DNA of 64,000 bases, taken from contig JBEKBX010000005.1 of NCBI GenBank assembly GCA_050015175.1, positions 9,069 through 73,068 on the forward strand, read 5' to 3'. The notes below the pieces were generated by a model. It was not told the DNA's origin, searched no databases, and saw only the letters and a list, made by a program, of their open reading frames with translations. Origin of the DNA: Acidimicrobiales bacterium. GTDB lineage: Bacteria; Actinomycetota; Acidimicrobiia; Acidimicrobiales; Bog-793. Numbering within the stretch: position 1 is the stretch's first letter; each line of letters opens with the position of its first letter. The position numbers and the translations under genes were made by a program. Shown piece after piece: positions 441 through 46,819 of this stretch.

Positions 441-1337
441 TCAGCTACTCGTTGTCTCATCCAGGGAGAAGGCCACCCTTCTTCCGAGCATTCGGTCTAT
501 CAGTGCACTTCCGCTTCCTTCTTCGCGGATAGCTCTGTTTATCAGGATCACCAGCGCGGGATAGGCCCAGAAGTCGCCGCACACCCAGAGGATGGCGGCT
601 CCGATCTGTTGGTCGGCGAACGGCGAGAGCCGGATCCCGGACAGGTGGTCGTACACGGAGTACCACGGGGCCGAGGACAAGATGCTGAGCGACATTGCCA
701 GAAGGATCATCACACCGTTCGTGGCCAGGATTGCCCAGATCCCTCCGAGAGTGGAGAGCTTCGGCCTTATCGGATGGGAAGGAATGAGCTGCATCCAGAA
801 CAAGACCCCCGTCACGAAGAACGAGGAGTGCATAAGCCAGATGTGGACCGCCTGATTCCGTTCGGCGAGATCGAACAGGGCGGGCACATGCCAGATGACC
901 ATCGCAGCGTTGAAGAGCACGACCGCGACGATCCCGCTCGACAAGAACCGGCCGAGCGCGCGAAGTGGCCTTGCCCAAGCGCTGAGGAGAACGGCGCGCC
1001 CGAGGCGCCGCCTCACGGCAACTGGGAAGCCGTGCACGAGCGGCAACCAAGGGGCGCCTGCCACGATGAGGATCGGAGCGAAGAACATGATCAGGATGTG
1101 CTCGATCATGTGGACGAAGAAGTAGTCGCTGGCCCAGTAGTCGATCGGCGAGACGACGGCGAGGAGCAAGACCCCGAGCCCACCATAGAAGAGAAACGAC
1201 TTGCGTCGGCGGGCCCGGACGCGTTCGGGACGCGAGCGCCGACGTAGATTGCGCAGGCCCAGTTCGTGCCAGACCACGATCACCGTCGCGACGATGAGAA
1301 ACGGGTCGTAGGACCAGTTGCGAAGGACGTAGTTCAT
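441..1337 (-). CDS. ctaG: Cytochrome c oxidase assembly factor CtaG (caa3-type polytopic membrane protein)
   Basis: 298-aa polytopic ORF with CtaG-family His-rich helices (FFVHMIEHILIMF, VIWHVPALFD, HIWLMHSSFF) and C-terminal FADQQIGAAILW. Lies 40 nt downstream of the Sco-fusion gene on the same strand. Confidence 0.8.
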   Translation of the reverse strand: MNYVLRNWSYDPFLIVATVIVVWHELGLRNLRRRSRPERVRARRRKSFLFYGGLGVLLLAVVSPIDYWASDYFFVHMIEHILIMFFAPILIVAGAPWLPLVHGFPVAVRRRLGRAVLLSAWARPLRALGRFLSSGIVAVVLFNAAMVIWHVPALFDLAERNQAVHIWLMHSSFFVTGVLFWMQLIPSHPIRPKLSTLGGIWAILATNGVMILLAMSLSILSSAPWYSVYDHLSGIRLSPFADQQIGAAILWVCGDFWAYPALVILINRAIREEGSGSALIDRMLGRRVAFSLDETTSS

Positions 1338-1376: not shown

Positions 1377-3206
1377 TCATCTGTCCAGCACGCTCCGGAT
1401 GGCGCTTGCTAGAACCACCGAGAACGATGACCTCGTCACTTGAGTCCCCGGCCCCGGATCCGCATCGATGATGTACCGGGCATGACCTCTCGGATCGATG
1501 ACGTAGGCGATGTCGCTGTGGGCGATCATCGAGCCACCTGTCGAATAGGAAACGAGGACCCCGAATGCATTCCAGACGCGGCCGAGCTGCGAGGCTGAGC
1601 CCGTTAGGAAGTCCCAGTTCCCGAGGCGCTCGAGGCCTTCCTGATGATCGAAGGCCACGAGGTACGAGGTCGAGCGGTACACCGGGTTGGCGACAACAGC
1701 GACTAGCTCTACTCGCCGGGCCGCCGCTCCGAGCATCTCGTCGCTCGCGAGGAATTCCTGAGCGATGATCGGGCAGTCCGAGACGCAGACGGGGTCGAGG
1801 AAAGTGAGGGCGACCGCCTTGCCCCGCAGGCTCTGCAACGACACGGAATGTCCACTTTGATTCAGCAGGCGGAACCCGGGTGCCGGATAGTCCACCGCGT
1901 TGGGTGTTCCGTCTATCGCCTGGGCGACGATGGGATCCGCGTTCGGGTTGGTTGAAGCCACTGCCATCGGCGCGGCGCCCACAAGGGTGACTGCGATCGC
2001 GCACAGCGCTGCAAGGACACGGAAGGTGTAGGCGGGTCGCGCCGTCAGGCGCTCTTTCAGTGGCAATGAAGCGACAGCCGCCGAGGTGATCGGCACCTGG
2101 ACTTCAACAACGGCAACCTGCACGAAGGCGAGGTACCCGGCTGTGAAGACGAGGGCCATGGGGATCATGCTGTTCGGATCGGTCCCGACACCGCCGAGGA
2201 AGCCGAGATCCTGGACGAGAACCCAGTCGGCCAGGCAGAGCACGATCGCAGCAGGCACGGCGACCCGGAGCACCCTTGGCCGTCCGCTCAAGAAAGCCAC
2301 TCCGAGCGCTGCCAGACAGATAACCAGGAAGAGATTGACCGCCCAACCATGGGCAGCATCGAATGAGCTGAAACTCGAGATCCACGACGACAACACGTGC
2401 GGCTGCGGTGTCTGGGCCATCTGACGGAGCATCGAGGTGAGAGTTCCTGGGCTGGCGTGCCGATCGAGCTGGCCGCGCCAATACCCGCGGCCGGGCCAAG
2501 CCTGCAGCAAGGCCATGCCCACGAAGAACAGTCCAAAGCCGGAGAGGATCGTTCGTCCAAGCCGCGGGCTCGTCCAGGCACGGTCCGGCAGGCAGATGAG
2601 CAGGCCGGCAAAGGTGTAGATCAGCACCGCACCCGGGGCCCCGAGTGCCCAGCTGAGACCCGGGGCAAAGATGCCCCCGAAGCTTTCGCCGAAGACCCAC
2701 ACCACGAGCCCCCACGCAGCGCTCGACAAACCGCCGAGGCGAGACCAGTCGCCTCGGGGAGCGACGAGCAGCCAGATGCCGAGACCCACCTGGATCCACA
2801 CGGCCGAGGCGGACGCGGTGACTGGATGGTTGCTCCAGATCGTGCCTCCGGCGTTGACGAGGTGCTGGACCCATGATGGAGACGCCGCCGCACTCGGCTC
2901 GATCACCTGCGTCGTCATCCCGAGCGGCATCGAGGCCTGAGCCTGGAGGATCCCGTCGAAGATCCACACGAGTCCGAAAGAGACCCGTAGCAGGCGTCGC
3001 GCTCTGGGTTCGAGACGCTGCGGAACCTCGACATTCCCTTCGCCGTTCGCCACCTTGCGCAGTTGGGCGCCGCGCAGCACGTGCCAGCCCACGGCCAGCA
3101 CGGCGAGAAGCAGCAGGACGACAATTGCCTGATGCTGAAGCAGGTTCCTGAACGCCGCCACGATGATGGGATTGTTCGTCTGGAGACCCGACTCCATGCC
3201 TGGCAT
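1377..3206 (-). CDS. Fusion protein: ~430-aa polytopic membrane domain of unknown family + C-terminal SCO1/SenC copper chaperone domain
   Basis: 609-aa ORF. C-terminal part has the Sco signature FLDPVCVSDCPIIAQEF (CxxxC) and the conserved downstream His (SMIAHSDIAYVIDPRG). The N-terminal part is a long series of hydrophobic helices with no motif I recognise. Confidence 0.75.
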   Translation of the reverse strand: MPGMESGLQTNNPIIVAAFRNLLQHQAIVVLLLLAVLAVGWHVLRGAQLRKVANGEGNVEVPQRLEPRARRLLRVSFGLVWIFDGILQAQASMPLGMTTQVIEPSAAASPSWVQHLVNAGGTIWSNHPVTASASAVWIQVGLGIWLLVAPRGDWSRLGGLSSAAWGLVVWVFGESFGGIFAPGLSWALGAPGAVLIYTFAGLLICLPDRAWTSPRLGRTILSGFGLFFVGMALLQAWPGRGYWRGQLDRHASPGTLTSMLRQMAQTPQPHVLSSWISSFSSFDAAHGWAVNLFLVICLAALGVAFLSGRPRVLRVAVPAAIVLCLADWVLVQDLGFLGGVGTDPNSMIPMALVFTAGYLAFVQVAVVEVQVPITSAAVASLPLKERLTARPAYTFRVLAALCAIAVTLVGAAPMAVASTNPNADPIVAQAIDGTPNAVDYPAPGFRLLNQSGHSVSLQSLRGKAVALTFLDPVCVSDCPIIAQEFLASDEMLGAAARRVELVAVVANPVYRSTSYLVAFDHQEGLERLGNWDFLTGSASQLGRVWNAFGVLVSYSTGGSMIAHSDIAYVIDPRGHARYIIDADPGPGTQVTRSSFSVVLASAIRSVLDR

Positions 3207-3638
3207 GGCCGACTAAACCTTCCCCCCTCAAGTCACCGGTTTGCTGCCGGTGCCTACCGCCCGACGTCATCGCGTCCCTGGCCGTCCCAGGATAACGGTG
3301 CCAGAACCGAGCTCATACGCGTCCGCACGACCATGGGTCGACGACCCGACAGCCGCCGCCAGCGACGGCGCTGCGGCGCATCGCCGTCTGCAGCCGCAAC
3401 CCGACACAGTCACCTCGATGTGCGGTGAAACATCCTTCAGGGGCCCGGCGATCGGTTGACTGCCGACTCGGCATTACCCTCGTCGGATGCGTCATGAACT
3501 GGGCGCCACGGCTGGAGGGGTCACGAGCCCGACGCCCCCATTGCTCGATCCGCGAGGCTCGTTGCCGCCTGCGTCTTTGGCGTGGCGTTTCTCCTCCACG
3601 CGGTTGGTCTTTGGCGCTACCCCGGAGCCACTCGCGCC

Positions 3639-3746
3639 ATGAAGTTGTTCGGCTTCTCGATCGCCTATCTCACAATGGTGTTTGTGGCCATGGCGTCGAT
3701 GCAATCGCCCATCCCTGGCGACCCGTGGAGACAACGGCACCCATGA
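3639..3746 (+). CDS. Candidate 35-aa single-TM peptide, translationally coupled to the Sco gene
   Basis: Below ORF-track cutoff. ATG at 3639, GGAG about 12 nt upstream. Translation MKLFGFSIAYLTMVFVAMASMQSPIPGDPWRQRHP. GC3 about 77 percent by hand count. Its TGA (3744..3746) overlaps the Sco ATG (3743) as ATGA. Confidence 0.4.
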   Translation: MKLFGFSIAYLTMVFVAMASMQSPIPGDPWRQRHP

Positions 3747-4591
3747 CAGACACGATGAAGCCCTCTCGAACCGGGACCTCGACCGAAGGTCGTGTAGACC
3801 GGGCGACGGCGTTCGCAGCGGGCCCGACGCGCATCCCGAGAAAATTCGTATGGACTCTGCTCGGCGCAGCCGCCGTGCTCGGAGTCGGAGGCGCGTTGTT
3901 GGAACACGTTCTTGATGCAGCTGGTGTCAACCCCACTCCGACGACCACGATGACCACGCTTGCGCCGCGTCCTTTCGCGGCTGAGGGCGAACGCGAGGCC
4001 GTGGTGCCGGGCGAGCTCGCGGCCTTCATGGGATTGAACCGCATGACGCCCGGGGAGGCTCGTTCGTTCTCGCTCGTTGACGAACGTAGCCGGACGGTCT
4101 CGCTGGCTGACGAGCGCGGCAAGGTTGTTGTGCTCACGTTCTTCGACGGGCGCTGCAACGACATCTGTCCCGTGCTTGCCGCCGAGATCGTGCAAGCTGA
4201 CCGCGATCTGGGAGCAGCCTCGGGACGGGTGGGCTTCCTGACGGTCAACACCGACCCGGCCGCCACTGCGGTCTCGGGACTTCAGGATGTGCTTGTGAAG
4301 ACCGCACTAGGTCGCCTCCCTAACTGGCACATGGCGACCGGACCCCTCTCCGATTTGAACACGGTGTGGCAGTCCTACGGCATCACGGTGAGCTTCAACG
4401 CCGCCACGCGAACCGTGGAACACAACGACGTCATGTACTTCCTCGACGTCAAGGGTCGATTCGAGTTCAGTGCCACACCGTTCGCGAACGAGCGCCGCCC
4501 CTCAGGCACTTACGAGTTGCCGCGCGACGAGATCGCCAGGTTCGCTACGGGCATCGCAACCTATGCCCGCCAACTTGCGGACAACCGATGA
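3743..4591 (+). CDS. SCO1/SenC family copper chaperone (membrane-anchored thioredoxin fold)
   Basis: Internal ATG of track ORF 3425..4591 chosen; the upstream 106 codons are Arg/Cys/Trp-rich and not protein-like. Has an N-terminal TM, FFDGRCNDICPVLAAEI (CxxxC) and conserved His in VEHNDVMYFLDVKG. Confidence 0.85.
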   Translation: MTDTMKPSRTGTSTEGRVDRATAFAAGPTRIPRKFVWTLLGAAAVLGVGGALLEHVLDAAGVNPTPTTTMTTLAPRPFAAEGEREAVVPGELAAFMGLNRMTPGEARSFSLVDERSRTVSLADERGKVVVLTFFDGRCNDICPVLAAEIVQADRDLGAASGRVGFLTVNTDPAATAVSGLQDVLVKTALGRLPNWHMATGPLSDLNTVWQSYGITVSFNAATRTVEHNDVMYFLDVKGRFEFSATPFANERRPSGTYELPRDEIARFATGIATYARQLADNR

Positions 4592-5256
4592 ACGCGAACC
4601 AGGAACCGGGGCGGGAAGACGCCGGCACGACCACAGGCGCGGAAGCAAGCCCGCCGACACCTCGGAACCGAAGACGTGCCCTGCTCGTGACGGTTGCCGC
4701 CATCGTCGTGCTGGCCGTCACGGTGGTTTCTGACCTCCCTGTGCACAGCTCACTTGCAGCCGACGTATCGGCCGGACAGAGCGTCATGAGCGAGGTTAAC
4801 GCTGATGTTGGCCCTTGCGCCTTTGCGGTGAAGGAGTCGTTCTCCATTCACGCAGACCAGGTCGCAGGCTCGCTCTCATCCTCCGATCAACGTGAAGCCC
4901 CCTCGCTCCTGCGCGACGACCTCGCGGCCTGCTCGTTCACCGACGACAGCATCTTCGAGCTCTCCAACATCGAAGTGCCCGGATCTGCAGCCGGCAAACG
5001 GCTCGGTGACGTCATCGACACAGTGACGCTGTGGGCCACCTCCGACGCGCTCGGCGCGATCTCCGACCTGGAAACGCTCTTGGCCAGGCCTTACGACCAG
5101 ACCGCCCAGCATGACCTCGTTATCAGAGAACAGGCGTTGGCCTCCGATCGAGCTGCCGCGTTCGCCGACATCAGCGTTGCTGATCAAATCATCTCCGCGC
5201 GCCTCACCGAACCGGCCCTGCCGGTGCTGCCACACTCAGCTGTCCACACCAGCTGA
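4588..5256 (+). CDS. Hypothetical membrane-anchored protein (one N-terminal TM, Asp/Ser/Ala-rich extracytoplasmic domain)
   Basis: ATG at 4588 overlaps the Sco stop (ATGA). MNANQEPGRE...RRRALLVTVAAIVVLAVTVVSDLP followed by a soluble domain with no recognisable motif. The upstream part of track ORF 4366..5256 overlaps the Sco frame. Confidence 0.55.
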   Translation: MNANQEPGREDAGTTTGAEASPPTPRNRRRALLVTVAAIVVLAVTVVSDLPVHSSLAADVSAGQSVMSEVNADVGPCAFAVKESFSIHADQVAGSLSSSDQREAPSLLRDDLAACSFTDDSIFELSNIEVPGSAAGKRLGDVIDTVTLWATSDALGAISDLETLLARPYDQTAQHDLVIREQALASDRAAAFADISVADQIISARLTEPALPVLPHSAVHTS

Positions 5257-6048
5257 CCGGCTTGCGTTAGCCGGGCCGCGTTCCGGCCGGAACGCAGAGC
5301 GGTGGGCGGGGGCGTCTTGTTGCTCTTCGGCGCGAAGCCACGCCAGTACGTTCCAGAACACGACGGGCATGAACGTCACCGTCGCCACGAGCCACAACAC
5401 CGCGGTCGAGAACTGCTGATCGGCCGCCACACTCGGCCAACGGCCTGCCACGTGACGAAAAGCCTTGTACCAGGAGGAGTTCGAGAAGCCGACCAGGTAC
5501 GCGACCGTCCACACCGTCCACATGGCCACGCCCGCCATCGCCGCGCGCAGGGGCCGGGGTGAGCGGAGGACAACCGGAGGGAACTGCACGAGCTCCAGCC
5601 AAAGCGCTCCACCTGCCAGCACAAGGCTCACACCTTCGCCAGCGAGGAGCCATCGGTCGCGCACGATAGCGTCGACTGCCATCGGTGTCCTCCAGCCCAC
5701 GACCGCACTTATGAAAAGTCCTAGGGACAAGGCTCTCTGAACCATCGCTGGCGCGCCCCGCGGCGAGTTCTTCGATCGATCGACTCGTGCCGCCTGCCGA
5801 GCACGCTCCTGGTTGCTATTCCTCAAGTGGCCAAGAAATGCCCGCGGCACGCCCAGCACGAGCAGCGCCGGGACGGCCATGGCGTAGGCGGAGAACTGGA
5901 AGGCCTCGACGAATTCATAACGACGGGCAAGCGGGGACAGTGGCGGGACCGCGAGGGCTGTGGCGAGAAGCACCGCGGAACCGAGGCACAACCGCCGAAG
6001 CTGGTGCGTACCCGTCGCTGGTCGCTCTTCGGCGGCCCCGACGGTCAT
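5236..6048 (-). CDS. Divergent CtaG-family (caa3_CtaG-like) membrane protein lacking the conserved histidines
   Basis: 270 aa, polytopic. C-terminal SSWYKAFRHVAGRWPSVAADQQFSTAVLWLV aligns with CtaG (441..1337) SAPWYSVYDHLSGIRLSPFADQQIGAAILWV. The His-rich helices are replaced (YEFVEAFQFSAYAM, VGWRTPMAVD). Last gene of the oxidase operon. Confidence 0.6.
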   Translation of the reverse strand: MTVGAAEERPATGTHQLRRLCLGSAVLLATALAVPPLSPLARRYEFVEAFQFSAYAMAVPALLVLGVPRAFLGHLRNSNQERARQAARVDRSKNSPRGAPAMVQRALSLGLFISAVVGWRTPMAVDAIVRDRWLLAGEGVSLVLAGGALWLELVQFPPVVLRSPRPLRAAMAGVAMWTVWTVAYLVGFSNSSWYKAFRHVAGRWPSVAADQQFSTAVLWLVATVTFMPVVFWNVLAWLRAEEQQDAPAHRSAFRPERGPANASRSAGVDS

Positions 6049-6230: not shown

Positions 6231-6914
6231 TCACGCCACGTAGAAGAGCACCCAGTAGAAGAACGCCACGCAAGCAATGAAGACCCAGTAGTAGGTGCAG
6301 CCCTCGAGATTCGCACGGAAGAGCCTGACAGCGGGCAGTGAGGAGCGGACCATGCCCCCGTCTTCGACTACGGCGCGGCGAAGGCGAAGCTGGCGTGCCA
6401 GCAGTGTTTCGAGCCAGTAGGCCCCAGACAGCAGCAGTGCGATATTCATCCCGGCCCAGCCGATGAAGCACGACGCGTACCCGCTCGACCCAGGGAAGAA
6501 GGGCAGAACGGTCAGCTGCCAGATTTGCAATGCGACCGCGGTGAGAGTGCAGAGGACCCCCGTCCAGCCTGTGACCTGCCAGTCAAGTTCGGAGCCCGAC
6601 CGGAACCTCCACAGGCCGTAGGCGACGAGGAAGGCGCTCGCGAGGGAGAAGGCGAACACTGCCGCCCCGGCACCGGTCGGTGCCGTGATATGGGCAGGGC
6701 GCCAGAGGCTCGCGTTGTTCGCCGACCGCAAGTAGAAGTACGCGAATCCCAGGGCCGCGAACGCGAAGGCCCAGATGCCGATCACCATCCGGCTGCCTGT
6801 CCACAGGGCGCCCTCGTGAGCGCGGAGCTCGTAGGCGATCTCCTCCGGCGTCTCCCGCAGCATCGGGAACGATTCAGTTGACGTAAGCCTGTCGGTCATC
6901 GTGCCTCCGCTCAC
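6231..6914 (-). CDS. Cytochrome c oxidase subunit III-like membrane protein
   Basis: 227 aa with about 5 TM helices, immediately after subunit I. GTG start at 6914 overlaps the subunit I stop (GTGA); alternative ATG at 6899. Trp/Phe/Tyr-rich helices resemble short actinobacterial subunit III. The call rests mainly on position and topology. Confidence 0.65.
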   Translation of the reverse strand: MSGGTMTDRLTSTESFPMLRETPEEIAYELRAHEGALWTGSRMVIGIWAFAFAALGFAYFYLRSANNASLWRPAHITAPTGAGAAVFAFSLASAFLVAYGLWRFRSGSELDWQVTGWTGVLCTLTAVALQIWQLTVLPFFPGSSGYASCFIGWAGMNIALLLSGAYWLETLLARQLRLRRAVVEDGGMVRSSLPAVRLFRANLEGCTYYWVFIACVAFFYWVLFYVA

Positions 6915-8923
6915 ATGATCGGTGGACGGGGATCCAGGTCTCCCGGCGGGTCTGGGAGCGACTCGATGTCACCCGGACTCACAGGCTGTTTCGGGCTGAC
7001 CGCGCCTACAGCCGCGAGTGACGGGACACCCAGATCCGCCACAGGTGGTGCCTCTGGCTCTCCGTAGTGGTAGGGGTCGGCGAGCACAACTGGGATCCGC
7101 TCGAAATCGAACCATGGCACGGGCGTCGCCGTCTGCCATTCGAGACCGTTCGAGTTCCACGGGTTGTCCGCCGCTTTCACCGGGTCGATGTAGACCGACC
7201 ATACGAAATTGAAGATGAAGATTAGGAACGACGCCCCAAGCAGATAGGCACTGACAGAGGAAATGTCGTTCAGCGTCTGCAGGTTCTGGGCGTACTCAAA
7301 GACACGCCTTGGCTGGCCCAAGAGGCCTACGAGGAACAGCGGGAAGAACGTGAAGTTGAAGAAGACGAAGAACGTCCAGAAGTGGGCCTTGGCGAGCCTC
7401 TGGTTGAGCTGCTTCCCGGTCATCTTGGGTAGCCAGTAATAAAGGCCTCCGAACAAGGCGAAGATCAACCCGCCCATGATCGTGTAGTGGAAGTGGGCCA
7501 TCACGAAGAAGCTCCCATGGACCGTCACGTCAACCGGGACGTCCGAGAGGAAGACACCGGTGATCCCCCCGATGAGGAAGTTGAAAAGCATGCCCAGGCA
7601 GAAGAGCATCGGGACCTCGAAGCGGATCTTCGCTTTCCAAAGGGTCCCGAGGGTGACCAGGTATAAGAACCCGGTCGGGATGGAGATCAGTTCCGTGGTC
7701 AACATGAACAACGGCCGCATGTCGGGGTTGATGCCGCTCTGGAACAGGTGGTGCTGCCATACGAAGAAGGACAGCAGTGCCACGCCTATCATCCCGGCGG
7801 CGGCCACCCGGTAGGCGAAGAGAGGCTTTCTCGTGAACACCGGCAGCATCTCCATCACGATGCCGAAGCCTGGCAACGCCATGATGTAGACCTCGGGATG
7901 ACCGAAGAACCAGAAGAGGTTCTCCCACAAGAAGCTGCTTCCTCCGTGTTCGGTCACATAGAACGCGGTCTGAACCGTGCGGTCCAGCACGCCGAGGTAA
8001 CCCGCCACGATGAGCGTGGGGGTCGCCAACACCAGTAAGGCTGTCGTGGCCAGGATTGACCATACGAAGATGGGGATTCGGCTCCAGGTCATGCCCGGTG
8101 CACGGTAATTGATGATCGTCGCGGCAAGGTTGAAGCCGGCCATGATCATTCCCACACCTATCACCGCGAAACCGACGAGATAAGCGTCCATACCGGGATT
8201 AGCCTGGGTCTGCAGCGGCGCATAGCCCGTCCAACCAGTCGGGAATCCCCCAAGCGGCAGGGCAGTCATGATCACCAGGTACCCGGCCGTGAAGACCCAA
8301 AACGAGAACGCCTCCACCCGGGGATAGGCCATTCTGCGCGAACCGATCATCAACGGGACCAACCAGTTGCCGAGGGGGCCGACGACGGCCGACGAGGCCA
8401 TCATCATCATCATCGTGCCGTGCTCGCCGACGAGGGCGATGTAGGTCCCCGGACCGAAAACGTGGCTGGTGGGACTGAGCAGCTCTGTACGGATGGCCAT
8501 TGCCAGCAGGCCGGCGGTGAACATGAAGACCAGTACGCCGATCAGGTATTGCAAGCCGACGACCTTGTGATCTTCGGTCAGGCGGAAATACCGCACCCAT
8601 GAGCGCGTCGGCAGCGCAGGCGTCGGTTCGCGACCGAGCATCTTCAACAAGGGGTAAGTGAGCCCGCCGATGCCGATGAGCCACCCGAGGACACCGAAGG
8701 ACAGCCCGAACACGACCGCGACGTTGTTCATGGTCGTGTTCTGACTGACGGGCCAGCTCCCGGCGATCAGATCGCCGACATATCGGCCAAGGAACCATCC
8801 TACGACGGCGCCTACTATGGCCCAGCCCATGTGTGGCTTGAGCCAGTCAGGGCGTCTGTCGAGGCCCGCGCGCCCAGTCGCGACCTCACCAGGAAATGGT
8901 GACCCGGCTGTGTCCTGTGCCAT
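6911..8923 (-). CDS. ctaD: Heme-copper oxidase subunit I (A-type, cytochrome c oxidase subunit I)
   Basis: 670-aa ORF with WFFGHPEVYIMALPGFG, VWQHHLF, MAHFHYTIMGG, GQPRRV and LGNWLVPLMIG. All canonical heme and CuB histidines are present. Confidence 0.95.
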   Translation of the reverse strand: MAQDTAGSPFPGEVATGRAGLDRRPDWLKPHMGWAIVGAVVGWFLGRYVGDLIAGSWPVSQNTTMNNVAVVFGLSFGVLGWLIGIGGLTYPLLKMLGREPTPALPTRSWVRYFRLTEDHKVVGLQYLIGVLVFMFTAGLLAMAIRTELLSPTSHVFGPGTYIALVGEHGTMMMMMASSAVVGPLGNWLVPLMIGSRRMAYPRVEAFSFWVFTAGYLVIMTALPLGGFPTGWTGYAPLQTQANPGMDAYLVGFAVIGVGMIMAGFNLAATIINYRAPGMTWSRIPIFVWSILATTALLVLATPTLIVAGYLGVLDRTVQTAFYVTEHGGSSFLWENLFWFFGHPEVYIMALPGFGIVMEMLPVFTRKPLFAYRVAAAGMIGVALLSFFVWQHHLFQSGINPDMRPLFMLTTELISIPTGFLYLVTLGTLWKAKIRFEVPMLFCLGMLFNFLIGGITGVFLSDVPVDVTVHGSFFVMAHFHYTIMGGLIFALFGGLYYWLPKMTGKQLNQRLAKAHFWTFFVFFNFTFFPLFLVGLLGQPRRVFEYAQNLQTLNDISSVSAYLLGASFLIFIFNFVWSVYIDPVKAADNPWNSNGLEWQTATPVPWFDFERIPVVLADPYHYGEPEAPPVADLGVPSLAAVGAVSPKQPVSPGDIESLPDPPGDLDPRPPIM
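8399..8413 (-). repeat. (CAT)5 on + strand = (ATG)5 trinucleotide repeat encoding MMMMM within subunit I
   Basis: Read directly: gcc atc atc atc atc atc gtg on + strand. The reverse frame gives EHGTMMMMMASS. Confidence 0.9.
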
Positions 8924-8972: not shown

Positions 8973-10022
8973 TCACGTCCTGCCCTTGCCCGTCGTCTCG
9001 ACCGGGAGCGGTTCACCCGGCTGCTTTGCTCCGTAGGTCAAGACAGGGCTGTAGGGGTCCACATTGTCGGGGTAGTACCCGCCGTCAGCGCCGTTCGCGT
9101 CCGGTGTGTAGGTCCAGGCGAAGGGGGGCAGGAACTTGGTGTTCGCGGCGAGCTGGTGTTCGGTGGTCTCGGCCCAGGACTGGAACTGGAGTTCTGTCAC
9201 CACCTTTCCCGAGTTGTACATGGCACCGTGCCACAGTCCGCACAACTCGTCGCAGCGCACGACGAACGTGCCGAGCTGATCGGGGGTTGTGTACGCGACA
9301 TCGTCCTGCCCGGGGTTGGCGTCGGCCTTCACGCCGAGCTGGTAGACCCAGAAGTCGTGGACCACGTCCAACGACGTGACATGGAAGGCGATCGCGGTGT
9401 GATCCGGGACGACGAGGTCAGTCGTTTCAAAGCCTCCGAAGGTCGGGTAGCGGTAGGTCCATTTCCACTGCTGGCCGATCACCTGGATGGGCAGCACGTC
9501 ATGTGAGGCGGGGGTCCAGATCGGCGCGGGTCCCTGTCCACCACCGGCGCCCTCGGGCTGCACGAGCTCATAGGTTCCAAAACCGAAGAGGAACAGCACG
9601 AGCACAGTCGTGGTGACGATCCAGGTGGACTGAATTCGCACGTTGCTTCGGGCCTTAGGCCCACCAACCGGCTCGGGGCCGTTACGCGACGCCCGCCAGT
9701 TGACGATTGCGTACCCCATGTAGATCCACACCGCGAGCATTACCGGCAAAGCGGCGATGATCAGGATGTTGAAGTCGAACTGCGCCCCGTCGGCCGTGTT
9801 GCTCATCGTCCCGGGCGGGATATGTGGCCCGGCCAGGTAGTAGAAGAGCGGGTCGGCGATCGCGGACAGCAAGATCCAGAGGCCGGCCATGCGCCACCCG
9901 TGCCGCGGCTCGCTGTCCGACCCGCTCCTCGACGAGGGGCGAGCGCCGCCGCTTGCCGCCGGGTCGCCGTTGCTAAGCGGCTCGTGTGGCCCCTCGGTGA
10001 GCCCCGCGTCGTAGCCCGGCAT
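8973..10022 (-). CDS. ctaC: Cytochrome c oxidase subunit II (CuA cupredoxin, no fused cytochrome c domain)
   Basis: Start set at ATG 10022 (ATGA overlap with upstream gene) rather than track start 10463. TM helices, QQWKWTYRYP, and a complete CuA motif HDFW...CDELCGLWHGAM. Confidence 0.9.
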   Translation of the reverse strand: MPGYDAGLTEGPHEPLSNGDPAASGGARPSSRSGSDSEPRHGWRMAGLWILLSAIADPLFYYLAGPHIPPGTMSNTADGAQFDFNILIIAALPVMLAVWIYMGYAIVNWRASRNGPEPVGGPKARSNVRIQSTWIVTTTVLVLFLFGFGTYELVQPEGAGGGQGPAPIWTPASHDVLPIQVIGQQWKWTYRYPTFGGFETTDLVVPDHTAIAFHVTSLDVVHDFWVYQLGVKADANPGQDDVAYTTPDQLGTFVVRCDELCGLWHGAMYNSGKVVTELQFQSWAETTEHQLAANTKFLPPFAWTYTPDANGADGGYYPDNVDPYSPVLTYGAKQPGEPLPVETTGKGRT

Positions 10023-10684
10023 CAGGCGACGACCTTCATGAAGCCGTCCATCCAGCCGACCGTCTGCATCGGGCCCCCGTTCCCGTACAAGAAGCCGAGA
10101 GCGCAGGGGACGAAACACTGCCAGGGATAGGTACCCGGCCCCGGGCTCATGAATGAGAACTTGACGATGTTGTGCGGTGAGGTGGTGCACGGAGCGGCGC
10201 TGCACAAATCCGCATTCGCATTGTTGCCGTACAGCGGCACGTTGATCCCGAGGCTGGGCATCGAGAAGGTGTGACCGACTCCGTTGCCGGCGTTCGCGTT
10301 GACGACACTGAAGACTTTGCCGTTGAGTGTGGCTATGCCGCCGAGAGTGCCCTGCACCGTGCCGATCTGCTGGTTGCGCAATGCGCTCCCAGAGTCGTAC
10401 TGGTAGATCGTCACGTTGACCTTCGTGTGCGCAGGCACCTGCCAAGTCGTGGTGTGCAACCATTGGCCGTCAGGCGAACGGGTCATGTACGACACCCACG
10501 TCGCGTGTATGCCATGGCCGTAGGAACCCACGGTCTGCATCGTGACGTCGACAGCTTGGCCCGGGCTCGAGGTGTAGTCGACTGTGTTCGGCTGGGATGT
10601 GAGATTCGAAAGCGCGAAACTCACGCCGCCTGCTACCGCGGCGAGCAGCACGAGTGTGATGGCCACCCTGCCAGTCCTCTGCAC
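10022..10684 (-). CDS. Signal-anchored cupredoxin-like protein, paralogous to the CuA domain of subunit II
   Basis: 220 aa with N-terminal TM/signal (RVAITLVLLAAVAGGVSFA). Its C-terminal half aligns with the subunit II cupredoxin (GVGHTFSMPSLGINVPL; PGTYPWQCFVPCA). First gene of the oxidase operon. Confidence 0.6.
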   Translation of the reverse strand: MQRTGRVAITLVLLAAVAGGVSFALSNLTSQPNTVDYTSSPGQAVDVTMQTVGSYGHGIHATWVSYMTRSPDGQWLHTTTWQVPAHTKVNVTIYQYDSGSALRNQQIGTVQGTLGGIATLNGKVFSVVNANAGNGVGHTFSMPSLGINVPLYGNNANADLCSAAPCTTSPHNIVKFSFMSPGPGTYPWQCFVPCALGFLYGNGGPMQTVGWMDGFMKVVA

Positions 10685-14379: not shown

Positions 14380-15177
14380 TCACGCTAAGACGAAGGAGCC
14401 GTATCCCACCACTCGCGTGAGATCGCCTACCGTGTCGGCCGAGGTGCGGAGATCCAACTGCTCGACTTTCATCTCGCGCCTTGCTGCCAAGCTGAGCAGG
14501 CCGCGCAACGCGTAAACCCCGCAGGCATCGGCGGGAGACACTCCCTTTGGGTTGCGGGCGATGATCGCCGCGGCGGTTCGGTTGTCCATACGTCGGGCGG
14601 TTTCACGGTCGTGGTAGTGGCTCAGGTCGGTGCTAACGACCACCAGGGTCTCGGGCCCACCCCAAACGCGGCTCAGCAACTGTGCGACTGCGGCTGTCGA
14701 CACCGTTCCGACCAAGAGAGGCAGCACTCTTACCGGACCGAGGACGAACTGAATGAATGGCAGTTGAACCTCGAGGCTGTGCTCGGCGAGGTGCGCCAAG
14801 TCGGAGACCGATACGAGTCTGTCCCTGACGACCGCATCTCGAGACGCGGAGTCGACCTCAAGCACACCCAGTGGCGTGGAGAAGGCATCTGCCCCTGACG
14901 CGGCGATGTCTCCCAATGCGACGGTGTGCGCGGGACCGAGCAGCACGACTCGTTGCACGTGGCCCCTGCCCGTGGCCACCCGCGCATAGGCGCTCGCAGC
15001 AACTGGCGCCGAGTAGACATAGCCAGCATGGGGCACGATGATCGCTTTCGGCACCGATCCCGCAGACCCTCTGAAGCGAGCGGAACTGAGTAGGCGGCGC
15101 ATGGTTTCGGTGAGGATCGCCGTATCCTCCGGATAGAAGGTGCCAGCGACTGCAGGCGGACGTATGACAGAGCTCAT
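14380..15177 (-). CDS. AmmeMemoRadiSam system protein B (Memo-like)
   Basis: IRPPAVAGTFYPED, IVPHAGYVYSAPVAASAY and STDLSHYH motifs. Start overlaps the stop of the radical SAM gene (15174..15177). Confidence 0.85.
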   Translation of the reverse strand: MSSVIRPPAVAGTFYPEDTAILTETMRRLLSSARFRGSAGSVPKAIIVPHAGYVYSAPVAASAYARVATGRGHVQRVVLLGPAHTVALGDIAASGADAFSTPLGVLEVDSASRDAVVRDRLVSVSDLAHLAEHSLEVQLPFIQFVLGPVRVLPLLVGTVSTAAVAQLLSRVWGGPETLVVVSTDLSHYHDRETARRMDNRTAAAIIARNPKGVSPADACGVYALRGLLSLAARREMKVEQLDLRTSADTVGDLTRVVGYGSFVLA

Positions 15178-16325
15178 GACGCGGTCGGCGTTAAGCGCAC
15201 GGGCAGGCGCCTAGCACCCCAGGTTCCAGCTGGGCCGTCGAACACACCCACAAGTTGTGCCCCGCAGCTGGTGCAGCGGCCGCTATCGGAAAGGTGATAC
15301 CGCCTGATCGTGTACCAGTCGCGCTCCACCACCATTTGACCGCACCCCGCGCAGTAGGTGCTCGACCCCTCGGCGTCGTGAACGTTGCCCGTGTATACGT
15401 GAGACAACCCGGCGGCCAAGGCGATGTGGCGGGCGCGGCTCAACGTGCTCACCGGTGTCGGAGGCAGGCCTGCGAGCTTGTAGTCCGGGTGGAAGGCAGT
15501 GAAGTGGAGAGGGACGTCGCTCGCAAGATCGCAGGCGACCCAAGAAACGAGTGAGTCCAATTCCTCGTCGGAATCGTTGAGGCCCGGGATCAACAACGTT
15601 GTCACTTCCAACCAGACCGATGTCTCCTGATGCACATAGCGCAACGTGTCTTTGACCGCTTCGAGATGACCGCCGCAAAGCTGACGGTAGAAGTCTTCGC
15701 TGAACGCCTTGAGATCGATGTTTGCAGCATCGAGGTGAGAGTAGAACTCGGACCTGGGCTCGGGGCAGACATAGCCCGCGCTGACCGCAACAGTGTTGAT
15801 GCCTGCCTCATGGCACGCTTCTGCCACGTCGATCGCGTACTCGTGGAAGATCACCGGATCGTTGTAGGTGAACGCGACGCTCGGGCACCCCAACCGCTGT
15901 GCTGCTTTGACAATGTCGGTCGGTGAGGCCGCGTATGCAAGAGTGTCGACCTCTTTGGACTTCGAGAGATCCCAGTTCTGGCAGAACCTACAGGCGAGGT
16001 TGCAGCCGGCTGTTCCAAACGAGAGCACCGAGCTGCCAGGCAGGAAGTGGTTCAGCGGCTTCTTCTCTATTGGGTCGACACAGAACCCGCTCGAGCGTCC
16101 ATAGCTCGTCAGAACCACCTGATCCTGCAACCGACCCCTGAGGAAACACAGGCCGCGCTGGCCTTCTCGAAGCTTGCAGGCACGCGGACAGATGTCGCAC
16201 TGGATTCGTCCGTCTTCCACAAGGTGCCAGTACTTCGTGGGCACCGTAGAGCTATCCCAAGCCATTGTGCGGTGCCCGCTTCCACCCTCGACCCTGGCGT
16301 CAGACCGGTCCGCGTGTCGCGCCAT
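15174..16325 (-). CDS. AmmeMemoRadiSam system radical SAM enzyme
   Basis: CNLACRFCQNWDLSK (CxxxCxxC), N-terminal Cys cluster CDICPRACKL and C-terminal Cys pairs CAGCG / CTSCG. ATG at 16325 preferred (GAGGAGGGG 4 nt upstream); the track ORF extends to GTG 16340. Confidence 0.85.
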   Translation of the reverse strand: MARHADRSDARVEGGSGHRTMAWDSSTVPTKYWHLVEDGRIQCDICPRACKLREGQRGLCFLRGRLQDQVVLTSYGRSSGFCVDPIEKKPLNHFLPGSSVLSFGTAGCNLACRFCQNWDLSKSKEVDTLAYAASPTDIVKAAQRLGCPSVAFTYNDPVIFHEYAIDVAEACHEAGINTVAVSAGYVCPEPRSEFYSHLDAANIDLKAFSEDFYRQLCGGHLEAVKDTLRYVHQETSVWLEVTTLLIPGLNDSDEELDSLVSWVACDLASDVPLHFTAFHPDYKLAGLPPTPVSTLSRARHIALAAGLSHVYTGNVHDAEGSSTYCAGCGQMVVERDWYTIRRYHLSDSGRCTSCGAQLVGVFDGPAGTWGARRLPVRLTPTAS

Positions 16326-16570
16326 CGAGCCCCTCCTCACTATCTCAGGATTGACTGGCGACCATCTTTTCGGTGGATCAAAGTCCGACTCACGGGCAAC
16401 TCGGGCTTGTCTGCCGGGACAAGCCCGTTGTTGGATGTCCGTGACATTTTTCCGTGCCGGGAGGAGCGACTTCCACCAAGCTCCGTGGCACTCCCACCTC
16501 GGAACAAGATTTTAGCTCTGCGGTCGTTCGTGACCGGTGGAGCGTGAGATGGTCCCTGCCTGCTGAATGA

Positions 16571-43316: not shown

Positions 43317-46255
43317 TGAAGTTGAGCATCACACTGAACGGCGTCACGCGTGCTCTTACCTGCGACGCGGGCGATTCGCTGCTTGACGTGCTCCGTCGGG
43401 AGGGATGCTTCAGCGTCCGCTATGGCTCGGAGACCGGCGAGACCGGCGCGGGCGCGGTCCTGCTCGACGGTCGCTTGATCTCGTCCGACGTGCTCCTTGC
43501 GGCCCAGGCAGACGGGCACGCGGTGATCACGGTCGAGTCGCTGAACGTGACCACGGGAGAGATGGACCCCATCCAGGAGGCGTTCGTCGAGACAGGGGCT
43601 CTGCAGTCCGGGTACTCGGCCGGCGCGATGGTGTTGGCCACCAAGGCTCTCCTCGAGCGGCAGCCCGATCCCACTGACGAACAGATTCGCGATGCATTGT
43701 CGGGGATTCTCGACCGTGAGACCGGCTACACCAAGGTCATCGAGGCTGTTCGACGCGCCGCGGCGGTGCGCCGCGGCGAGAAGCCGAACCCGATGGAGCC
43801 CGTCGTTGTCGAGTCCCTGTCCGGCAACCCCGAGCTGGCGGCGACGCTGCGCCCGCTCGCACTTGAGGTTTCGCCCGCCATACCGCGCCTTGTGACCTCA
43901 CCCGATGTTCCACAGACCGCGGTGGTCGGCAAGCCCGAGCACAAGGTGGAGGCTCTGAGGCTCGTCAAGGGCAACGCTGCCTTCGCCGACGACATCGAGC
44001 TTCGCGGGATGCTCTACGCGAAAGTCCTGCGCAGCCCCCATGCCCATGCGCGCATCGTGGCGATAGACGACTCGCAGGCGAGAGCTTTGCCCGGCGTCCA
44101 CGCAGTGCTGCACCACGGCAACATGCCGCGGGTGAAGTACGCCTCTGGCGGCCAGAGCTGGCCGAACCCGCGACCTCACGACGAGGTGAGCTTCGACGAC
44201 AAGGTGCGCTATGTCGGCGACCGAGTCGCAGCCGTCGCTGCTGAGTCGCCGGAGATCGCCGAGGAGGCGTGCCGACTGATCAATGTCACCTACGAGGTCC
44301 TGCCCGCTGTCCTGGATGCCAAGTCGGCGTTGGCGGAGGGCGCGCCTGTCATCCATGACGAGTCAGACACCGTGGGGATCTTTGACGCAGCGCACAACAT
44401 CAGCCATCACATCGGGGGCCAGACGGTCAGCGACGCGGAGATGGAAGCTGCATTCGCGCGGGCCGACCACGTCTTTGAGACGACCTTCGAGGTCCAGCAG
44501 ATGCAGCACACCCCGATCGAGCCCCACGCCACGATCGGCTGGCTCGACGAGGACGAGCGGCTGGTGCTGCGGTCGTCCACGCAGGTGCCCTTCCACATCC
44601 GTCGCATGCTCGCGCCTCTGCTCGGGCTCCCGGTGAAGGCCATTCGCATCATCAAGCCCCGCATAGGAGGCGGCTTCGGCTCCAAGCAGGAGATGGTCAT
44701 CGAGGACATCGTCGGCCACCTCGTGCTCGCGACCCGCCGGCCTGTCCGGCTCGTGCTCAACCGGGAAGAGGAGTTCATCTCGACGCGCACCCGCCACTCG
44801 CAGACGCTCACATACCGGACCGGGGTCACAGACGACGGACATCTCGTGGCGCAGGATCTCCGGGTGTTGTCGAGCACAGGCGCCTACGGCACTCACGGTT
44901 TCACGGTGAATTCGCTCACGGGCGCCCGAGGCCTCTCGCTGTACAACTGCCCGGCCAAGAGGTTCAGTTGCGACGTCGCGTATACGAACCGCCCGGTCGC
45001 GGGCGCGTTCCGCGGCTACGGGGCACCGCAGGCATTCTTCGGGCTCGAGTCCCAGATGGACGACATCGCCCGCGCCCTGCACCTCGATCCCATCGAGTTC
45101 CGGCGCATGAACTGGGTGAAGACCGGCGACGCGCTCGACATATTGCTGCGCCTCGGTGAACGCGGGGGCATTGTGGAGGAGATCGCACCCGAGGACATGC
45201 CGCACGTGACGACCTGCGGCACGGACGAGTGCGTAGCACAGGGGCTGCGCGCGATCGGCTGGCACCGTCGTGAGGACCCGCTGTGGAAACAGCCACCGGA
45301 CCGGCCGCACATCCGGCGCGGGATCGGTCTCGCACTGTGCATGCAAGGGTCGGGCATCCCGTTTGTGGACATGGGGGCGAGCTCGATCAAGATCAACGAC
45401 GACGGGTCGTTCAACCTCCTCGTCGGTGCCGCCGACCTCGGTACGGGTGCAGATACGGTGTTCGCCCAGATCGCGGCGGACGTACTCGGGGTCGCGACCG
45501 AAGACATCGTGGTGTACTCGGGAGACACCGACTTCACGCCGTTCGACAAGGGTGCTTACGCTTCGAGCACTACCTACATCTCCGGTATGGCGGTGAAGAA
45601 GGCGGCCGAGGCCGCGCGGAAGCGGATAGTCGAGCGAGCGACTCGGCTCTTGAGCGTCGACGCCGGCGAGATCGAGCTGCGCGACCGCCGAGCGTGGGCG
45701 GCCGACGGGCAGTCCATATCGATCGGGGACATCGCCTTGAATGCGCTGCACACCGAGGACCAGGAGCAGATCATGGGAACGGCGTCCCACTGGTCGACCG
45801 AGTCTCCGGCCCCCTTCGCGGCGCAGTTGGCCGAGATCGAGGTCGACATCGAGACCGGTCAGATCACGGTCAACAAGCTCGTGATGGCTGTGGACTGCGG
45901 TGTGCCGATCAACCCCGTCACGGCGAGCGGTCAGGTCGAGGGCGGCATGGTCCAGGCGCTCGGGTACGCGCTCACCGAAGAGACGCTCCTCGACGACCTC
46001 GGCCGCCCTGTGAATGCGCGCTTTGGACCCTACTGGATCTTCCGGTCCGATGACACGCCGACCACCGAGGTCTTCCTCGTACAAACGATGGAGACTTCTG
46101 GACCGTTTGGGGCCAAGTCCATCGCCGAGATAGTCATCGATGGAGTCGCTCCTGCGGTTCGCAACGCCGTTCTCGACGCGACGGGAGTGACCATCGATTC
46201 GATCCCGTTCACGCCAGAGCGCGTCTGGCGTGCCCTTCATGCCCAGACGGTGTGA
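43316..46255 (+). CDS. Xanthine-dehydrogenase-family Moco subunit fused to a cysteine-less [2Fe-2S]-like N-terminal module
   Basis: 979-aa uninterrupted ORF. Moco-domain motifs IGGGFGSKQE, AGAFRGYGAPQAFFGLE and GPFGAKSIAEIVIDGVAPAV. The N-terminal 150 aa are colinear with small-subunit ferredoxin domains, but every ligand Cys is substituted (GSETGETGAGAV, QSGYSAGA, DRETGY). Confidence 0.85.
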   Translation: MKLSITLNGVTRALTCDAGDSLLDVLRREGCFSVRYGSETGETGAGAVLLDGRLISSDVLLAAQADGHAVITVESLNVTTGEMDPIQEAFVETGALQSGYSAGAMVLATKALLERQPDPTDEQIRDALSGILDRETGYTKVIEAVRRAAAVRRGEKPNPMEPVVVESLSGNPELAATLRPLALEVSPAIPRLVTSPDVPQTAVVGKPEHKVEALRLVKGNAAFADDIELRGMLYAKVLRSPHAHARIVAIDDSQARALPGVHAVLHHGNMPRVKYASGGQSWPNPRPHDEVSFDDKVRYVGDRVAAVAAESPEIAEEACRLINVTYEVLPAVLDAKSALAEGAPVIHDESDTVGIFDAAHNISHHIGGQTVSDAEMEAAFARADHVFETTFEVQQMQHTPIEPHATIGWLDEDERLVLRSSTQVPFHIRRMLAPLLGLPVKAIRIIKPRIGGGFGSKQEMVIEDIVGHLVLATRRPVRLVLNREEEFISTRTRHSQTLTYRTGVTDDGHLVAQDLRVLSSTGAYGTHGFTVNSLTGARGLSLYNCPAKRFSCDVAYTNRPVAGAFRGYGAPQAFFGLESQMDDIARALHLDPIEFRRMNWVKTGDALDILLRLGERGGIVEEIAPEDMPHVTTCGTDECVAQGLRAIGWHRREDPLWKQPPDRPHIRRGIGLALCMQGSGIPFVDMGASSIKINDDGSFNLLVGAADLGTGADTVFAQIAADVLGVATEDIVVYSGDTDFTPFDKGAYASSTTYISGMAVKKAAEAARKRIVERATRLLSVDAGEIELRDRRAWAADGQSISIGDIALNALHTEDQEQIMGTASHWSTESPAPFAAQLAEIEVDIETGQITVNKLVMAVDCGVPINPVTASGQVEGGMVQALGYALTEETLLDDLGRPVNARFGPYWIFRSDDTPTTEVFLVQTMETSGPFGAKSIAEIVIDGVAPAVRNAVLDATGVTIDSIPFTPERVWRALHAQTV

Positions 46256-46424
46256 TCTTTAGCGCCCAGGGACACGCGAGACAGCAGGTATCGGTGTTCT
46301 CGCTCGTGGCGGCACATGCTCACGCGTTGTGACAGCCGCGGTGACGGCTGAATCCGCCCGCGCTCAAACGAGAATGACCTATCCGACCACAAGTCCAGGG
46401 GGTGCGGGGCGCAGCCCCGTTCGG

Positions 46425-46819
46425 GGAGATCGCGAAGCTCACGGATCGCCGGCGGAGGCACGAAGCTACCGCGGAGCAAACCGTGCTCCAACAATTCGCA
46501 GAGCCACGCCGCGTCGGCGACGTCGGTCTTGCGACCGGGCAGAATCTTCACGTGCCGGGCGTTGACGAGCTTCAGCTCAAAGGAACCCTCTTCGAGCAGA
46601 TACCAGACCGGCTTCCAGTACTGGCCGGTCGCCTCCATCAAGACGTCGGTCACGGCCAGCTCGGCGAGCCAGCCGGCGAGTGCCTCCAGTCCGAATCGGA
46701 ACGCCGAAAAGGTCCGGATCTCCTGTCGGCGTCCCCCGGCTTGTCCGGCACGCGGATGCAAGCGACCACCTCGTTTTTCGAGACGTCGAGCCCGGCGCAG
46801 CGGGCTACCAACAAATCCA
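46425..46819 (-). mobile_element. IS110-family transposase relic (N-terminal DEDD domain only; frameshifted and 3-prime truncated)
   Basis: ATG at 46819: MDLLVARCAGLDVSKNEVVACIRVPD. A frameshift at the C5 run near 46733..46737 follows, then QEIRTFSAFRFGLEALAGWLAELAVTDVLMEATGQYWKPVWYLLEEGSFELKLVNARHVKILPGRKTDVADAAWLCELLEHGLLRGSFVPPPAIRELRDL. Similarity stops there and the C-terminal domain is missing. Confidence 0.75.

Follow-up and report, generated by a model that had tools for sequence, protein, structure and literature searches.

The stretch of DNA analysed here (the window) comprises 64,000 nucleotides (nt) from an Acidimicrobiales bacterium (GenBank assembly GCA_050015175.1, contig JBEKBX010000005.1, positions 9,069 to 73,068 of the forward strand). 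Its minus strand carries an oxidase gene cluster in the order 220-amino-acid (aa) membrane-anchored protein, coxB, coxA, five-transmembrane (TM) COX3-like protein and CtaG-like protein. The subject of the analysis is coxA, a ctaD-like gene for subunit I of a heme-copper oxidase. Its product, CoxA, retains the six His ligands of the metal centres and aligns with Arg at the entry Asp of the D pathway for protons, Glu at the Asn gate of that pathway and Leu at the Lys of the K pathway. Residue numbers are those of Rhodobacter sphaeroides, unless given as those of the query (CoxA of the window) or of Paracoccus denitrificans. The genes and segments on which the argument depends are as follows, with query numbering and the R. 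sphaeroides positions in brackets where needed.

8973..10022, minus strand: coxB, subunit II, 349 aa, start codon ATG at 10020..10022 (profile and alignment)
6911..8923, minus strand: coxA/ctaD-like gene, heme-copper oxidase subunit I, 670 aa (open reading frame (ORF), profile and structure comparisons)
8312..8338, minus strand: remodelled D entrance in GSRRMAYPRVEA, with R196-R197 at 8333..8338 and E204 at 8312..8314 (alignments)
8147..8152, minus strand: G258-M259, at the position of the helix-IV Ser pair (S200-S201) (alignment)
7886..7900, minus strand: H342-P-E344-V-Y346, i.e., CuB ligand, equivalent of E286 and cross-link Tyr (alignment, invariant)
7853..7855, minus strand: M357, at the K-pathway Ser (S299) (alignment; the same residue is given for Acidimicrobium ferrooxidans in Table S3 of PMC8239418)
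7748..7756, minus strand: Q390-H391-H392, two helix-VII CuB ligands after a clade-specific Gln (alignments)
7661..7699, minus strand: helix VIII, T409-T410-E411...S414...T417...L420-Y421, with E411 at 7691..7693 and L420 at 7664..7666 (alignments)
7487..7519, minus strand: H469-G470 at 7514..7519 and the heme a3 and heme a ligands H477/H479 at 7487..7495 (alignment)

The Pfam COX1 profile (PF00115) matches CoxA at 2.6e-129 and the six ligand His are aligned, which places the protein in the heme-copper oxidase superfamily. The top-ranking NCBIfam model is CtaD_CoxA, with 565 bits, under its cut-off of 670.75. NF050116, the model for actinobacterial aa3 CtaD, has a cut-off of 880 and scores CoxA at 474 bits, so that CoxA is not a member of that family. 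The nearest solved chains are those of mycobacterial CtaD (about 1e-124 and about 40% identity by HMMER). The top NCBIfam, PDB and Foldseek matches are all A-type, so that CoxA is A-family by homology. A structure model made with AlphaFold2 (AF2), from a multiple sequence alignment of 65 homologues, all of at least 72% identity, has a mean predicted local distance difference test (pLDDT) score of 70 and a predicted TM-score (pTM) of 0.76, and compares with A-family subunit I structures at a target-normalised TM-score of about 0.8. By these sequence comparisons CoxA is an A-family (aa3-like) heme-copper oxidase subunit I with all six His ligands intact. An identical 670-aa CoxA (P0001) is present in public metagenome data. 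Homologues with 72% identity or more number over 120, and those that bear names, few in all, are from metagenome-assembled genomes of Acidimicrobiales.

Other identities were considered and rejected. A cbb3-type (C-family) subunit I does not agree with the presence of the helix-VI Tyr of HPEVY, nor with best matches that are aa3 enzymes; the name “cbb3-type cytochrome c oxidase subunit I”, given to several homologues by PGAP, appears to be a generic label. A nitric oxide (NO) reductase (NOR) was rejected on the basis of the helix-VI motif HPEVY and the complete CuA site, the patterns H-X-Arom-X-E and HH-X-Arom-Arom-X17-E being absent (the NOR and A-family motif definitions are from PMC3084760). 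An A-family quinol oxidase was rejected on the basis of the CuA pattern H...CxELCxxxHxxM, which is intact in subunit II.

Residues of the D and K pathways and their distribution

Before use, the copies of the bovine (1occ_A) and R. sphaeroides (1m56_A) subunits were confirmed to be identical to the PDB sequences. The query was aligned by MAFFT with these two, with Mycobacterium smegmatis CtaD and with 120 homologues of at least 72% identity. A second alignment held 150 cluster representatives, and a third the GTDB loci, L007 and L027 being left out. HMMER alignments to mycobacterial CtaD are gap-free through every motif concerned; the segment PLMIGSRRMAYPRVEAFSFW pairs without gaps with its 20-residue counterpart, and the other motifs do likewise. 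The residue register given by these alignments is not in doubt. A preliminary description of the gene, made from the letters of the sequence, had set its register by eye; that register is upheld, the alignments being free of gaps with invariant motifs on both flanks.

The catalytic core is kept. All six metal ligands, H102, H421, H419, H284, H333 and H334, are present in the query, together with the cross-link Y288 (query Y346) and E286 of the D pathway (query E344), in agreement with the preliminary description, which had listed six ligand His, the cross-link Tyr and the A1-type Glu. The D-pathway lining residues N121, N207, S142 and Y33 are also kept, as are H411 of the Mg site and R481/R482 at the heme propionates. 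The Mg ligand D412 is replaced by G470, so that the loss of the Mg/Mn ligand Asp that had been read by eye is real, and G412 is found in 120 of 120 homologues.

In the D pathway, the entry residue D132 is replaced by R197, the preceding P131 by R196, and the Asn gate N139 by E204. The changes of the D-channel Asp to Arg and of the first Asn to Glu had been described before and are seen again in the alignments. Only R197 is unusual in the Arg pair, since an Arg is often found at position 131 of ordinary bacterial COX1. Further up the D pathway, S197 is replaced by I255, S200 by G258, S201 by M259 and G204 by A262. The earlier described change of the helix-IV Ser pair to G258-M259 is thus real, but it is weak evidence, as characterised mycobacterial CtaD reads G-T at the Ser pair (and has T at the H411 position). 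D132, N139 and K362 are all retained in mycobacterial and corynebacterial CtaD, whereas the Ser pair differs in characterised mycobacterial CtaD too. With the A-family D-channel set of PMC3084760 (P. denitrificans numbering), five of eight residues are kept in CoxA (N199, N113, Y35, S134 and E278) and three are lost (D124 to R, N131 to E and S193 to M), and the set is incomplete. A further change, A332 to Q390, lies directly before the CuB ligands H391/H392.

In the K pathway, S299 is replaced by M357 and K362 by L420, as expected from the PTGFL that the preliminary description had noted in place of PTGxK. Position 362 is occupied by L, I or V in all 120 homologues. The helix-VIII residues T352 and T359, on the K-pathway face, are kept. 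In the A-family K-channel set from the same source and in the same numbering, T351 and Y280 are kept, while K354 is replaced by L and S291 by M, and this set is also incomplete. In subunit II the CuA ligands are intact (His at 9357..9359 and CDELCGLWHGAM at 9219..9254) and the Mg-ligand Glu is retained; at 9630..9632 the K-entry Glu has given way to Gln (RIQSTW, versus RLEVVW in Thermus caa3). As judged from the aligned residues, the canonical K pathway is absent in both subunits.

Helix VIII also has an invariant Glu, E411, at the position of M353. This Glu had been placed one turn before the K-channel Lys, which is not correct: E411 is six residues before T359 and nine before the K362 position, about 2.5 turns off and on the opposite helical face. 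Among 142 comparable representatives, E353 and K362 are mutually exclusive, with E353 present in 32 sequences without K362 and in none with K362. E411 adjoins T410, the equivalent of T352, which hydrogen-bonds the CuB ligand H333 in established structures. Q390 and E411 are two new polar residues, which may touch near CuB.

E139 is present in all 120 homologues of at least 72% identity, and so is R or K at position 132. The pair is also fixed in at least 11 GTDB loci of 56-72% identity from Acidimicrobiaceae, Solirubrobacterales and Gaiellaceae, and altogether in at least about 130 Acidimicrobiia and Thermoleophilia sequences that range from 56 to 100% identity. Six different Arg codons are found at positions 131/132 across the GTDB loci. 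As seen from these comparisons, R/K132 and E139 are maintained by purifying selection.

Among the 150 cluster representatives, R/K132 is paired with E139 in 11 of 11 cases. One of the 11 is a COX1-3 fusion protein from Thermoplasmataceae that lies among archaeal sequences with D132 and N139, a position that suggests an independent origin of the R/E pair. In a neighbour-joining tree the actinobacterial R/E sequences form one clade, which also has M201 and Q332. The sister group (Ktedonobacterales locus L012, P0122 and P0127) is without K362 and has E353 and G412, and it retains D132, N139, S200 and S201. Thus the K-pathway loss is older and wider, and the change of the D entrance is nested inside it. 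The loss of K362, the presence of E353 and the change of D412 to G are common to a wider K-less group, which includes Acidiferrobacter, Thermoplasmata and Marsarchaeota and thereby acidophile archaea; its bacterial members share a DVP motif (D461). By the same sequence comparison, and apart from the Thermoplasmataceae recurrence, only the D132R/N139E pair, M201 and Q332 are specific to the actinobacterial branch. One member of the wider group, the COX1 of Acidiferrobacter thiooxydans (P0141), displays Y121/T132/L139 and has no carboxylate at either entrance site.

A separate large COX1 group, with proteins of about 840 aa, was also observed. It includes P0145, P0156, P0167-P0169, P0174, P0179, P0195, P0196 and P0215, and shows K362 changed to Q, N207 to E and N121 to I, V or M, with D132 mostly kept. 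This group is another uncharted channel variant.

Gene cluster and terminal regions

The other genes of the cluster and the remaining segments of coxA are listed below.

10022..10684, minus strand: membrane-anchored protein, 220 aa, putative copper protein (motifs and locus comparison)
6231..6914, minus strand: five-TM protein, 227 aa, in the subunit-III position (locus comparison)
5236..6048, minus strand: divergent caa3-type CtaG paralogue (PF09678, 1.2e-17; position kept in related loci)
8594..8923, minus strand: N-terminal extension of CoxA, residues 1 to about 110, with two extra TM helices (AF2)
8399..8422, minus strand: heme-a ligand H168, followed by the Met run M171-M175 in TM2 (alignment)
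6914..7081, minus strand: Pro-rich C-terminal tail of CoxA, residues 615-670 (composition and alignment)

A GGAGG sequence is found about 12 nt 5′ of the coxA ATG, and the 3′ end of coxA shares 4 nt with the next gene. The stop codon of the 220-aa protein overlaps the coxB ATG, and a stop/start overlap is also found at the junction of coxA and the COX3-like gene. Judged from these overlaps the oxidase genes are translationally coupled. The five-gene module is kept in loci of Acidimicrobiia, Thermoleophilia and Ktedonobacterales, i.e., in two phyla.

Searches of Pfam and of the PDB with the 220-aa protein yielded no match up to E = 10. However, HTF, WQCFVPC and GGPM.T.GYM.G are invariant in the Acidimicrobiia, Thermoleophilia and Ktedonobacterales loci, and these motifs suggest a copper protein. 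The C-x3-C of the protein recalls the spacing of CuA, with the second His absent. Because the module is also present in Ktedonobacterales, the 220-aa protein tracks the K-less clade and not the R/E pair specifically. The preliminary description had raised the question of whether the variant clade co-occurs with an extra cupredoxin and with CtaG. Both proteins are indeed conserved in the related loci, but the label “cupredoxin” is unproven. For the 227-aa protein, neither Pfam nor NCBIfam gave a match up to E = 10; it keeps FAYFYLRS and YWLET motifs and is probably a very divergent COX3. A second caa3-type CtaG (PF09678) is found at 441..1337. Copper-assembly genes are thus doubled near the oxidase, with two CtaG paralogues and two SCO-domain proteins (1377..3206 and 3425..4591). 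One of the SCO-domain proteins is fused to a multi-TM N-terminal domain of 430 residues whose family is not known.

The N-terminal extension of CoxA amounts to 93 residues relative to the R. sphaeroides protein, and its two helices, residues 32-54 (8762..8830) and 67-85 (8669..8725), are modelled by AF2 with pLDDT above 90; about 90 extra residues with two TM helices had been predicted. The Met run after the heme-a His had likewise been correctly located: (ATG)5 at 8399..8413 encodes M171-M175, of which M172-M175 are invariant in the 120 homologues and residue 171 is I, M or V. The C-terminal tail, described before as Pro-rich and of about 60 aa, has 14 Pro in 56 residues. It is weakly conserved save for a near-invariant terminal DPRPP (residues 662-670, 6914..6940), which may be a docking or interaction motif.

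No second oxidase was found within the window, and no genes for heme A synthesis or iron oxidation were seen among the window ORFs scanned. The remainder of the window has ordinary heterotroph functions. Memo-like and radical-SAM genes with a 4-nt overlap are present at 14380..16340 (minus strand); they appear unrelated to the oxidase, and presumably resemble the AmmeMemoRadiSam system. A fragment of an IS110-family transposase (PF01548, 7.9e-15), at 46237..46761 (minus strand), adjoins a molybdenum hydroxylase cluster.

A possible single D-type proton input and its rivals

The reading that is favoured here, by a modest preference, is that the enzyme functions as an O2 reductase and takes in all its protons by one D-type pathway, in which the entry carboxylate has been relocated to the Asn-gate position. 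Electrons would enter via the intact CuA of subunit II. With the K pathway gone, all protons would pass through one D-type pathway that ends at E344, and it is from the residues present in the two subunits that we infer a single-channel enzyme. In the Acidimicrobiia/Thermoleophilia branch the entry carboxylate would have shifted from the II-III loop (position 132) to the Asn gate (position 139). E204 would be the first proton acceptor, with Arg197 at the channel mouth and possibly paired with E204.

In R. sphaeroides, N139D alone abolishes pumping (PMC7196763, citing Branden 2006 and Garcia-Horsman 1995), while D132N/N139D is an active enzyme with full pumping restored (PMC7196763, citing Branden 2006). 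The double mutant is the laboratory precedent for a relocated entrance, and the best reading of CoxA is that of a natural counterpart of the pumping D132N/N139D mutant. The “A-type variant with a rerouted proton pathway” of the preliminary description therefore stands in part: the protein is A-family, the K pathway is absent and the D entrance is remodelled, but a rerouting is not demonstrated.

Several observations weigh against a relocated entrance. The AF2 model, with the mean pLDDT given above, is too mediocre to fix how R197 and E204 are arranged or how far the channel is hydrated. With M259, I255 and A262 the upper D pathway becomes more hydrophobic, which could break a water chain. With Arg in place of the Asn of the laboratory mutant, the mouth gains a positive charge, and the Glu is one carbon longer than the Asp of the mutant that was tested. 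Canonical enzymes mutated at K362 have almost no activity, so that the loss of this Lys must somehow be made good; the invariant E411, itself unexplained, may do this. In addition, the Acidiferrobacter relative is without a carboxylate at 132 or 139, and thus some members of the wider clade manage without a D-type entrance.

Some of the same observations agree with another reading, held to be rather unlikely, in which the enzyme is a naturally uncoupled, non-pumping O2 reductase that separates charge by the chemical protons alone, or in which protons take another route. Either the buried Glu139 would perturb E286 as N139D does, or R197-E204 would plug the D pathway and the active site would receive its protons by another polar route, around E411, S414, T410 and Q390. 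N139D of R. sphaeroides, N131D of P. denitrificans and N99D of yeast all abolish pumping, with turnover kept or raised (PMC7196763). The hydrophobic M259, I255 and A262 of the upper D pathway are also consistent with uncoupling, as are relatives in the wider group that come from acidophilic Fe/S oxidisers (Acidiferrobacter, Thermoplasmata and Marsarchaeota). In acidophilic Fe/S oxidisers a small driving force makes pumping unfavourable. However, E286 and the Asn, Ser and Tyr that line the D pathway are strictly kept, which is hard to explain for an unused pathway, and the D132N/N139D double change does pump (PMC7196763). A further point for this reading is E411, which is invariant across the K-less group and never found with K362 (32 versus 0 in the 142 representatives); E411, S414, T410 and Q390 flank T352 and the CuB ligand H333. 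But by simple helical geometry E411 is on the face opposite the K362 position, and the sequence shows no unbroken series of polar residues that would link the N side to E411.

A substrate other than O2, such as NO, is very improbable. Divergent, channel-less families of heme-copper oxidases have turned out to be NO reductases (PMC11214002), but here the CuA site is complete, the cross-link Tyr is kept together with E286 and all three His of CuB, SCO and CtaG copper chaperones are present in the cluster, no NOR-type Glu motifs as defined in PMC3084760 were seen, and the nearest relatives are aa3 oxidases. That CoxA is a decaying or non-functional paralogue, or that the changes are an artefact of register, could be argued from scores under both NCBIfam equivalog cut-offs. 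This is effectively refuted by gap-free alignments between invariant motifs, by an intact frame with 78% mean column identity and more than 200 invariant positions in the 65-sequence alignment, by the conservation of the five-gene module across two phyla, and by synonymous codon turnover at the changed sites.

A broader proposal, put forward tentatively, is that nature has repeatedly built a single-pathway A-family oxidase with a carboxylate at the Asn gate (R/K132 with E139), either pumping or naturally uncoupled for high-potential donors, and that E411 assumes the electrostatic role of K362 in both. The gating of pumped versus chemical protons in the D pathway has been argued mainly from a few engineered mutants, N139D, D132N/N139D and N207D. 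The clade offers a natural test, in which a related rearrangement is fixed in two actinobacterial classes and in an independent archaeal case, with the K pathway also gone. Should the enzyme pump, nature itself would have validated the “charge placement” model from D132N/N139D; the entry acid would not be tied to one position, and an A-type scaffold could do without the K pathway. Should it not pump, soil and peat Actinomycetota would have an abundant terminal oxidase that is uncoupled by nature, which would bear on estimates of their growth yield.

Comparison with known systems

A basal “2TM” group of family-A COX1 was described by Degli Esposti et al. (bioRxiv 2020.03.01.968255; Front Microbiol 2021, PMC8239418). 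It is marked by two extra N-terminal TM helices, absence of the canonical K channel in COX1 and COX2, HPEVY and a linked caa3-type CtaG, and is found in acidophilic iron oxidisers, Chloroflexi, Acidimicrobiia and other Actinobacteria (PMC8239418). The query displays the extra helices, the K-channel loss with HPEVY and a CtaG in the cluster, and by these marks it belongs to the catalogued basal clade. The literature already covers the lost K channel, the extended N-terminus and the linkage to CtaG, and about half of the oddities listed in the preliminary description are known. For the “2TM” enzyme of Acidimicrobium ferrooxidans (WP_015799102), Table S3 of PMC8239418 shows S291 changed to M, K354 to L, T351 kept, S357 changed to V and COX2 E78 changed to Q (P. 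denitrificans numbering); the K-channel columns of the query are identical, as compared via that table only. Acidithrix ferrooxidans (WP_052605977), from the same subclade, shares the extra helices, HPEVY and CtaG by its published description.

The D entrance is where the query branch departs from this subclade. For the bacterial proteins analysed in that work no significant D-channel change is reported, whereas D132 to R/K and N139 to E are fixed in the query branch. The D channel has been called essentially conserved, without significant change in composition (bioRxiv 2020.03.01.968255; PMC8239418). On the alignments presented here, that statement for the basal oxidases is too broad for the R/E branch and for the Acidiferrobacter lineage, and it needs revision. 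No description of the D132R/K and N139E pair was found in the literature searched, Degli Esposti 2020 BBA being outside its scope, and the relocation together with M201 and Q332 is apparently undescribed.

The aa3 oxidase of the rus operon (Acidithiobacillus and Acidiferrobacter, with AcoP as partner) is, like the query, a member of the wider K-less “2TM” group, and the operon order acoP-coxB-coxA parallels that of the 220-aa protein, coxB and coxA. However, the D entrance of Acidiferrobacter COX1 is Y121/T132/L139, in contrast to the R/E of the query. AcoP has the motif C...H...M, whereas the 220-aa protein has C-x3-C and no similarity to any PDB chain. The rus-operon systems are also those of iron oxidisers, whereas iron-oxidation genes were not seen among the window ORFs scanned. 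The CtaD of mycobacteria and corynebacteria (bcc-aa3; 8hcr, 6adq and 7q21) shares with the query the host phylum and E300 after the S299 position, but is its opposite in having D132, N139 and K362 and in being without the 2-TM extension.

The B-family ba3 oxidases use a single pathway for chemical and pumped protons, with no Lys in it, and have no Mg-site Asp. The query resembles them in its putative single input and in the absence of a pathway Lys and of a Mg-site Asp. The pathway used by ba3 is however a K-analogue channel of Tyr, Thr and Ser, and E286 is absent; the query has L, T and M in that region and keeps E286 and the D lining. In the D132N/N139D mutant, as in the query, position 132 has lost its carboxylate and position 139 has gained one. 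The mutant has Asn132 and Asp139, whereas the query has Arg/Lys132 and Glu139, and is in addition without the K pathway and S201.

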